Sequence record: PV464738.1
Strand: one strand, 5' to 3'
DNA: 64,000 bases
Source of the DNA: Escherichia phage RCIP0319
The position numbers and the translations under genes are program-made. Shown here in pieces: positions 7,007-8,410 of the stretch (position 1 is the first letter of the stretch; each line of letters opens with the position of its first letter). Under the pieces are notes generated by a model. It worked only from the letters and a program-made list of their open reading frames with translations. It searched no databases and was not told where the DNA came from.

Positions 7007-8410
7007 ATGCAAACGGCACGCGAAATTGACAAAAATGGATTCTTGACGATTGTGGGTTGTCCCATTTCGTCATTTGGCATTTTTGATTATTCTGCAGGTC
7101 AGGTTGGACTTGATGGTGATCCGAATCGCATCGTAAAAGTTTATCGCCCAGAGTCAGCGGTGAAAGACCCCGAAGCGATAGATTCATTCAAAAATATCCC
7201 TTTCATCGACAATCACGAAATGCTTTCTGGATTCGAAGGTGATGAGGATAACACAGCACCCGAAGAGTATGGCGTTGATGGCGTTCTAACTGGTAATGTT
7301 TATTATGACAAGCCATGGATGCGCGGCGACCTTAAAGTTTTTAGCCGTCGTCTGAAGAAGGCCATCGATTCTGGAAAGGTTGACTTGTCTTTGGGCTATG
7401 ACTGTGAATTCATCATACAGTCTGGAGAGTTTGACGGGCAGCCGTATGAAGTGGTACAGACAACTCTTCGCGGCAACCACATTGCTCTCGTGGACGTTGG
7501 TCGAGTACCAGGTGCACGGGTGCTGGATGGTCGTTGCTTTGACCATCTTTGTTTGACGACTGTAACACCATCCAACGAGGATTTAGACATGCCAAAACCG
7601 TTAAAAGGTAAAGCGCGTGATAATGCTGTTGAACAGCTGAAATCACTGATCCCTGCGCTCGAACAATTTCTGAATGAAGAGAGCACCGAAGCTGCTCATC
7701 AGGACGAAGTTGAAGTGAAAGCAGAAGAGAAGGATTCAACCGAAGAACGTGAAGAAGTGATGGTTGATCCAGAAGTTAAAGCAGAAGCTGAAGAGACTCC
7801 AGAAGGTGAAGAGACTCCAGAAGGTGAAGAGAAGTTTGAAGTTGAAACTGAATCTCACGCTGGCGGCGAGCTTCCGCAACTGATCAGCCAAATCGAAGCA
7901 CTTATTGCAAAACTTAAAGGTGGCGCGGTAGGTGATGAAGAAGAAGTTGAAGTCAAGGCTGAAGATGTATCACCTTGCGACAAAGCTGAAGATGTGGTTA
8001 GCGGCCTGCAAAACAGCAACGTAAAGGGGGCTTCGGTCGAAAAAGATGACAAACCGACAAAAGCGGCGAAAGCGTCGCCAGGTCCAGCAAAAGGGGAACA
8101 CTCAATGGCATCTGATTCAGCAGTTGCTGCTTTCTACGCTGATTCTGCTCGTAAGAATAGCCTCTACCAGCGCCTGTCTAAAGTTGTTGGTGCCTTTGAT
8201 CATGCAACTATGGACTCCAAGTCCGTAGCGAAATATGGCGCTAAAAAGTTAGGCTTGAAGTGCGTTGATGGTGCTGAGTTTGACGTGGTGGATAATTATC
8301 TGCGCGGCGTTGAACACGGTCAAAAACAGCGTGTAGTCGCAAAACAAAAGGCCGCTGCGGATTCTGCAGCAACTGACGAAGCATTTGAAGCTTGGTTGAA
8401 AGGGGAATAA
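7007..8410 (+). CDS. Putative scaffolding / prohead protease-like protein with acidic repeat region
   Basis: Lies between MuF and capsid genes; central Glu-rich low-complexity region with an in-frame 18-bp tandem repeat (ETPEGE x2), typical of scaffolds; start chosen at the second ATG for RBS spacing. Confidence 0.5.
   Translation: MQTAREIDKNGFLTIVGCPISSFGIFDYSAGQVGLDGDPNRIVKVYRPESAVKDPEAIDSFKNIPFIDNHEMLSGFEGDEDNTAPEEYGVDGVLTGNVYYDKPWMRGDLKVFSRRLKKAIDSGKVDLSLGYDCEFIIQSGEFDGQPYEVVQTTLRGNHIALVDVGRVPGARVLDGRCFDHLCLTTVTPSNEDLDMPKPLKGKARDNAVEQLKSLIPALEQFLNEESTEAAHQDEVEVKAEEKDSTEEREEVMVDPEVKAEAEETPEGEETPEGEEKFEVETESHAGGELPQLISQIEALIAKLKGGAVGDEEEVEVKAEDVSPCDKAEDVVSGLQNSNVKGASVEKDDKPTKAAKASPGPAKGEHSMASDSAVAAFYADSARKNSLYQRLSKVVGAFDHATMDSKSVAKYGAKKLGLKCVDGAEFDVVDNYLRGVEHGQKQRVVAKQKAAADSAATDEAFEAWLKGE

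Follow-up and report, generated by a model that had tools for sequence, protein, structure and literature searches.

Results

Organization of the capsid protease/scaffold locus

The window analyzed in this study is a 64,000-nt stretch of DNA from Escherichia phage RCIP0319 (PV464738.1). Its source is a Wifcevirus, an E. coli myovirus with a genome of ~68 kb, and as the window starts at the ATG of terL, the record has been rotated. The gene examined here encodes a capsid maturation protease/scaffold fusion (Table 1) and shows 96–99% identity with its counterparts in 28 Wifcevirus records, which represent ~68-kb myoviruses of E. coli and Shigella. The gene encodes 469 aa when translated from ATG 7001 and 467 aa from ATG 7007 (MQTARE...). 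The second ATG is the likelier start because the Shine-Dalgarno (SD) sequence GAGGGTGG abuts ATG 7001, and it is also the start annotated in most GenBank relatives. A promoter-like sequence, TTGCCT-17-TATAAT (6949–6977), was observed just 5' of the gene; the start-site region spans 6989–7009.

The product matched Pfam PF09979 (DUF2213, now Pa193_gp24) over aa 7–174 with an E value of 5.5e-35 and a score of 121.3 bits (gathering threshold, 22), and PHROG 3778 'head maturation protease' with an E value of 1e-171. A phmmer search aligned residues 5–469 of the query with residues 4–478 of PDB 9B40 chain G, gp24 of Pseudomonas phage Pa193 (E 9.5e-117). Judged from this alignment, the product is a full-length homologue of Pa193 gp24. 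As the PDB entry names the chain 'Scaffolding protein', the description of the gene as scaffold-like in the original prediction was appropriate.

A Mu-F-like head protein is encoded upstream, and a head-fibre-like protein is also encoded nearby. Downstream lie a Phage_cement gene (8413–9030) and then the major capsid protein gene (9045–10184). The same pairing of a PF09979-type gene with Phage_cement was found at six other loci (L026–L031). As called mechanically, the ORF for the cement protein (8392–9030) begins with TTG 8392, within the scaffold gene; relatives are annotated from the ATG equivalent to 8413, which makes the gene 618 nt long and places its start 3 nt past the scaffold stop.

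Two further features of this neighbourhood were observed. A 2.66-kb block (6434–9094), covering the intergenic region, the protease/scaffold gene, and the cement gene, differs from the nearest relative, ECO71P1, by one substitution, and its flanks are 2–5% different; the block therefore appears to be a recently shared or recombined mosaic segment. In addition, arrays of the 9-bp unit TACGGATGA were found at 6672–6693 (+), 6789–6815 (−), 6871–6891 (−), and 60694–60715 (+), with 5 matches versus 0.01 expected, and related half-sites at about 60628, 60641, and 60835. They border very AT-rich sequence in two long intergenic regions, of which one immediately precedes the protease/scaffold gene, and resemble operator arrays through which a regulator would act at two promoter regions.

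Table 1 Features of the protease/scaffold gene and its product, with window positions and residue numbers.
Feature	Position (nt)	Strand	Residues (aa)	Basis
Capsid maturation protease/scaffold fusion gene	7001/7007–8410	+		ORF; Pfam, PHROG, and PDB matches
N-terminal domain, assemblin/T4 gp21 fold (putative protease)	7001–7528	+	1–176	AlphaFold2, pLDDT about 95
Low-confidence stretch			177–202	pLDDT below 50
Candidate internal ribosome-binding site GAGGA (7577–7581) with in-frame ATG (7589–7591, M197)	7577–7591	+		Conservation, codon bias
Helix			205–229	pLDDT about 85
Disordered stretch			233–288	pLDDT about 32
Acidic linker 1, predicted disordered, hypervariable length	7700–7849	+	234–283	pLDDT about 32; family alignment
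Repeat copy 1, GAAGAGACTCCAGAAGGT (EETPEG)	7790–7807	+	264–269	Direct match
Repeat copy 2, identical (EETPEG)	7808–7825	+	270–275	Direct match; Tandem Repeats Finder
Partial third copy GAAGAGA, directly 3' of copy 2	7826–7832	+		
Region homologous to the Pa193 gp24 helix-turn-helix (Pa193 about 289–326)	7814–7927	+	about 272–309	phmmer alignment; PMC11456595; AlphaFold2
Helix			291–308	pLDDT about 85
Second disordered stretch			309–356	pLDDT about 35
Junction of private 27-nt deletion (9 aa, EEVEAEVKD) in acidic linker 2	7937–7952	+		Alignment; overlap of BLAST segments
C-terminal helical domain, scaffold part	8102–8398	+	368–466	AlphaFold2, pLDDT about 97; high column conservation

Domain architecture and the penton-binding motif

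An AlphaFold2 model of the protein was built on 111 homologues. The N-terminal domain adopts the same fold as two capsid proteases, T4 gp21 and herpesvirus assemblin, and H72, S130, and H160 are invariant across the 111 family sequences; proteolytic activity of the domain is putative. The C-terminal domain was modelled as helices at residues 368–396, 406–417, 426–455, and 460–466.

Pa193 gp24 has been described as a 'putative scaffolding protein' (PDB 9B40 chain G; Commun Biol 2024, PMC11456595). Of this protein, only residues 286–326 were resolved: a helix-turn-helix, five copies of which make up a pentameric 'dowel pin' below every five-fold vertex in the mature capsid (PMC11456595). At the pentons, the motif stands perpendicular to the shell and binds the A-domain; the fragment is still present in the mature virion (PMC11456595). 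Neither a protease domain nor an internal start is discussed in that paper, in which the word 'protease' has 0 occurrences (PMC11456595). The phmmer alignment pairs Pa193 V308 with L291 of the window protein and the turn EMSGE (301–305) with ESHAG (284–288); the exterior helix falls at about aa 272–283, the turn at 284–288, and the interior helix at 289–309. The alignment carries an uncertainty of a few residues in the low-complexity part, and the register of the interior helix is robust. By homology only, the motif is predicted to bind the inner capsid surface.

An in-frame 18-nt tandem repeat in acidic linker 1

The unit GAAGAGACTCCAGAAGGT occurs in two adjacent copies with 100% identity. 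The repeat is in frame with ORF 7001–8410, occupies codons 264–275, and leaves the ORF intact. The exact match and the reading frame confirmed the original prediction that an 18-bp unit encoding EETPEG stands twice in tandem, and the acidic low-complexity setting that it described was evident as well (23 D+E versus 5 K+R in aa 234–283). Tandem Repeats Finder reported a wider array at 7782–7832 (period 18, 2.8 copies, 96% match, score 95), since the flanks are imperfect partial copies, CAGAAGCT upstream and GAAGAGA downstream. Because of the phmmer mapping onto Pa193, the two EETPEG copies can be placed at the N-terminal edge of the penton-binding motif.

No other copy of the 18-nt unit was found across the 64-kb window, in which perfect tandem duplications of units of at least 10 nt number only two, namely this one and a 127-bp duplication. 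With up to 3 mismatches allowed, 0.03 matches to GAAGAGACTCCAGAAGGT are expected per window. A chance repeat was ruled out by this expectation, by the rarity of perfect duplications, and by the difference from relatives of exactly one inserted unit. Hairpin-driven slippage and a structured DNA or RNA element were also ruled out, as folding of the repeat on either strand was no better than that of shuffled controls (z 0.1 and 0.25).

Copy number among relatives and origin of the duplication

Repeat copy number was compared among isolates by aligning the gene from 22 distinct Wifcevirus genomes. The EETPEG unit is present in one copy in 22/22 relatives versus two in the present isolate, and the insertion is exactly one unit. 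Since all 22 sequenced relatives are single-copy, the duplication is derived and private to RCIP0319. It coincides with microhomology and lies in a variable, low-confidence linker beside a conserved helix-turn-helix. Over the whole gene, ECO71P1 differs from the window by one substitution (7294) and two indels.

The single-copy allele is CAGAAGCTGAAGAGA-CTC-CAGAAGGTGAAGAGA, an imperfect 1.8-copy array. All single-copy clade A relatives contain an exact 8-nt direct repeat, TGAAGAGA, in two copies at 18-nt spacing; the one-copy allele is therefore a typical substrate for slipped-strand mispairing. The 36-mer of the two-copy allele was not found in IMG/VR or JGI metagenome contigs, and complete E. 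coli genomes likewise lacked the duplicated allele. A collection of 15 billion proteins did not contain the exact protein; the cluster members there are 470–473 aa long.

These observations are consistent with the following course of events. Replication slippage between the short direct repeats of an ancestral one-copy allele would have duplicated one 18-nt unit, recently and in one isolate. The duplication would thereby add six residues to the disordered acidic spacer of a putative capsid maturation protease-scaffold protein, immediately N-terminal to the helix-turn-helix that is predicted to dock under the capsid penton, and would leave the sequence C-terminal of the junction unaltered. The outcome would be a neutral or nearly neutral length polymorphism of a flexible tether, and no functional element by itself.

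Length tolerance of the linker

Linkers 1 and 2 form the least conserved columns of the family alignment (conservation in linker 1, 0.14–0.35), and linker 1 is the most variable in length. Lengths in the 111 homologues were 24–93 aa for linker 1 (sd 15), 22–62 aa for linker 2 (sd 7.7), and 23–33 aa for the helix-turn-helix core (sd 1.0). Of the 28 exact tandem peptide repeats with a unit of at least 4 aa in the aligned family, 22 fall in linker 1, and the protease and C-terminal domains contain none. Thus, tandem duplication seems to be the usual mode of spacer evolution, with the window allele as its most recent example.

As a tandem duplication leaves the sequence on its C-terminal side as it was, the helix and its N-cap are as in the relatives. 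Given this unaltered junction and the family range of 24–93 residues for the spacer, neutrality or near-neutrality of the duplication is most likely. The original prediction had called the repeat benign because it is in frame. A harmless or neutral duplication is plausible, and the disordered, length-variable linker and the tandem peptide repeats of many homologues speak for it; the claim is indirect, and an effect on assembly is possible since the repeat abuts the exterior-helix homologue of the penton-binding motif.

A candidate nested scaffold product

M197, at the protease/scaffold boundary, is Met in 101/111 homologues. An internal start at this codon was investigated in 58 distinct loci with 30–97% protein identity. 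An SD-like core is located 4–10 nt upstream of the M197 codon in 54/58 loci, versus a background of 13.9% for in-frame codons of the same genes. The residues encoded at the internal SD vary (ED, EG, KG, KE, and others), and codon −4 is a G-ending Glu or Lys codon in 33/39 loci versus 33% gene-wide (p 5e-11). This apparent nucleotide-level constraint 5' of M197 is consistent with an internal ribosome-binding site, and the internal SD and ATG, both conserved, point to a nested scaffold of about 273 aa, predicted in the same frame. The repeat falls within this predicted product as well as within the full-length protein.

Nested protease/scaffold genes are known as I/Z in Mu, C/Nu3 in lambda, and UL26/UL26.5 in herpesviruses, and gpO of P2 is a fusion. 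A literature search for nested protease/scaffold genes yielded nothing directly usable. If the internal start is real, the Pbunavirus/Wifcevirus head module joins this classic scheme. The protein deposited as a 'putative scaffolding protein' carries an assemblin-fold domain, a putative protease, and, very probably, a conserved internal translation start.

A private 27-nt deletion on the other side of the motif

The second indel that separates the window from ECO71P1 is a private in-frame deletion in acidic linker 2, located 4–5 residues past the end of the interior helix, so that two private indels bracket the helix-turn-helix. At this site, the relatives have two 13-nt direct repeats, GAAGAAGTTGAAG, 27 nt apart, and exactly one period is missing here. 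Presence of one GAA codon at the site also varies among the relatives; across the 22 relatives, this gene has at least 65 substitutions and only one indel site, of 3 nt. The window branch carries two private indels versus one private substitution (Poisson P 1e-4 to 1e-3, a rough and post hoc estimate).

This excess makes co-selection of the pair conceivable, as selection or non-independent events, not drift, could underlie it. According to this alternative, the gain of 6 aa before and the loss of 9 aa after the helix-turn-helix were selected together, re-registering or re-tensioning the scaffold tethers, and were compensated or adaptive, for example after propagation in the laboratory or a change of host. 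The two indels are both private and flank the motif within about 150 nt, both lie within the 2.66-kb block that is otherwise one base from ECO71P1, and the ratio of indels to substitutions on the window branch is far above that of the genus. However, the local direct repeats account fully for both indels, the rate argument is post hoc, and the length of both linkers varies widely in the family. Family-wide length compensation between the linkers was not borne out, as their lengths showed no significant anticorrelation in the 111 members (Spearman −0.09, p 0.36). We therefore regard co-selection as unlikely. A broader version, in which a full-length product and a product nested from M197 are combined with acidic spacers acting as length-tuned tethers and with paired indels as a co-selected re-registration of the motif, seems quite improbable; if true, natural indel pairs would be a readable record of the constraints on scaffold geometry.

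The 127-bp duplication and other repeats in the window

The other perfect tandem duplication in the window is the 127-bp one at 24244–24370 and 24371–24497, which ECO71P1 and about 21 further Wifcevirus relatives lack. It frameshifts a structural gene that encodes 912 aa in relatives (PHROG 4797), giving ORFs 23358–24392 and 24406–26223, and in silico removal of one copy restored exactly the 912-aa ORF. The unit length equals the largest default k-mer of SPAdes, 127; duplicates of this sort are known to stem from the k-mer overlap left at the ends of circular contigs, and the record has been rotated to start at terL. Hence, the 127-bp duplication is probably an assembly artefact, an untrimmed circular-contig overlap that falsely splits the 912-aa structural gene in the record.

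The original prediction had also stated that slippage-prone repeats recur in this genome. This generalization was undercut by the probable artefact, as the 127-bp duplication is the only other perfect one. Slippage proneness of the whole genome found little support: the window aligns with ECO71P1 without gaps over 7937–24371 and with a single gap, the 18-nt duplication, over 1–7952, and most other Tandem Repeats Finder rows for the window are short and low-scoring. What stood was recurrence within this gene, in the form of the 27-nt deletion and the GAA codon difference among relatives.

Two other repeats were observed elsewhere in the window. A diverged in-frame 99-nt (33-aa) tandem repeat at 44284–44465 (1.8 copies, 77% identity) lies in a minus-strand gene (43866–44711) for a 281-aa Lys/Glu/Ala-rich protein; it is an older case of repeat expansion in a charged low-complexity protein. 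A repeat with a 30-nt period at 63501–63557 (2 copies, 83% match) is located inside a 96-aa ORF (63297–63587).

The probable 127-bp overlap in the same record also bears on whether the 18-nt duplication itself was introduced by sequencing, assembly, or polishing and is absent from the phage, as does the finding of the two-copy allele nowhere else in the collections searched. Against this, an 18-nt unit is far below read and k-mer length and gives assemblers no cause for duplication; exactly one unit was gained, in frame and at microhomology, and an equally clean 27-nt repeat-mediated deletion stands alongside. The exact-unit duplication and the clean deletion together bear the signature of biological slippage, not base-calling error. 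An artefact is accordingly improbable, and the repeat is likely to be real in the phage. A functional nucleic-acid element (a protein-binding site, a recoding signal, or a phase-variable contingency repeat) is suggested by the tandem-repeat nature alone and is scarcely credible, as copy-number change by a unit whose length is a multiple of three cannot switch frame, neither structure beyond shuffled controls on either strand nor other unit copies in the 64-kb window suggest function at the nucleic-acid level, and all 22 relatives, which are viable phages, lack the duplication.

Discussion

Here, we propose that the EETPEG repeat is very probably a recent, private 18-nt duplication that arose by slippage between pre-existing direct repeats in a disordered spacer, and that it is most likely neutral or nearly so. 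The repeat itself is of little weight: it is a length variant, private to one isolate, in a flexible linker and could serve at most as a strain marker. The duplication marks the two acidic spacers around the penton-binding motif as indel-tolerant parts of the Pa193_gp24-type protein, which may be useful for capsid-interior engineering or tagging.

The duplication is a new allele of a well-known kind. As in VNTR-type in-frame linker polymorphisms, the copies are perfect and head-to-tail, the progenitor contains microhomology, copy number differs between isolates, and the repeat lies in a disordered linker. Unlike in such polymorphisms, there are only two copies and one carrier isolate, with no sign of ongoing expansion, contraction, or phase variation. 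A phase-variable contingency repeat changes frame or expression, whereas here the 18-nt unit is a multiple of three and the ORF remains intact.

The likeness of the N-terminal domain to the T4 gp21 prohead protease and to herpesvirus assemblin (the UL26 family of HCMV, VZV, KSHV, and EBV) is one of fold, and the sequence identity with the window protein is only 9–20%. The arrangement of protease and scaffold in one reading frame is shared with Mu I/Z, lambda C/Nu3, and P2 gpO. With Mu I/Z and lambda C/Nu3, the gene would also share an internal SD and ATG at the domain boundary, conserved here among homologues, from which the window product is predicted only. A Mu-F-like head protein is encoded next door, as in Mu.

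The closest counterpart is Pa193 gp24. In addition to the homology over the full length, the two loci share the order of a Mu-F-like protein, a gp24-type gene, a cement protein, and the major capsid protein, and the interior helix LPQLISQIEALIAKLKG of the window protein aligns with the Pa193 'dowel pin' helix under the five-fold vertex. In contrast, the acidic linkers have no common conserved sequence and differ in length, and Pa193 gp24 has no counterpart of the EETPEG duplication or the 9-aa deletion. Via this homology, the motif also resembles the coat-binding helix-turn-helix of P22 gp8, which contacts the coat protein from inside, an analogy drawn by the authors of the Pa193 study themselves (PMC11456595). 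Compared with P22 gp8, the Pa193 motif is distinguished by its position at the penton A-domain, its orientation perpendicular to the shell, and its retention in the mature virion.
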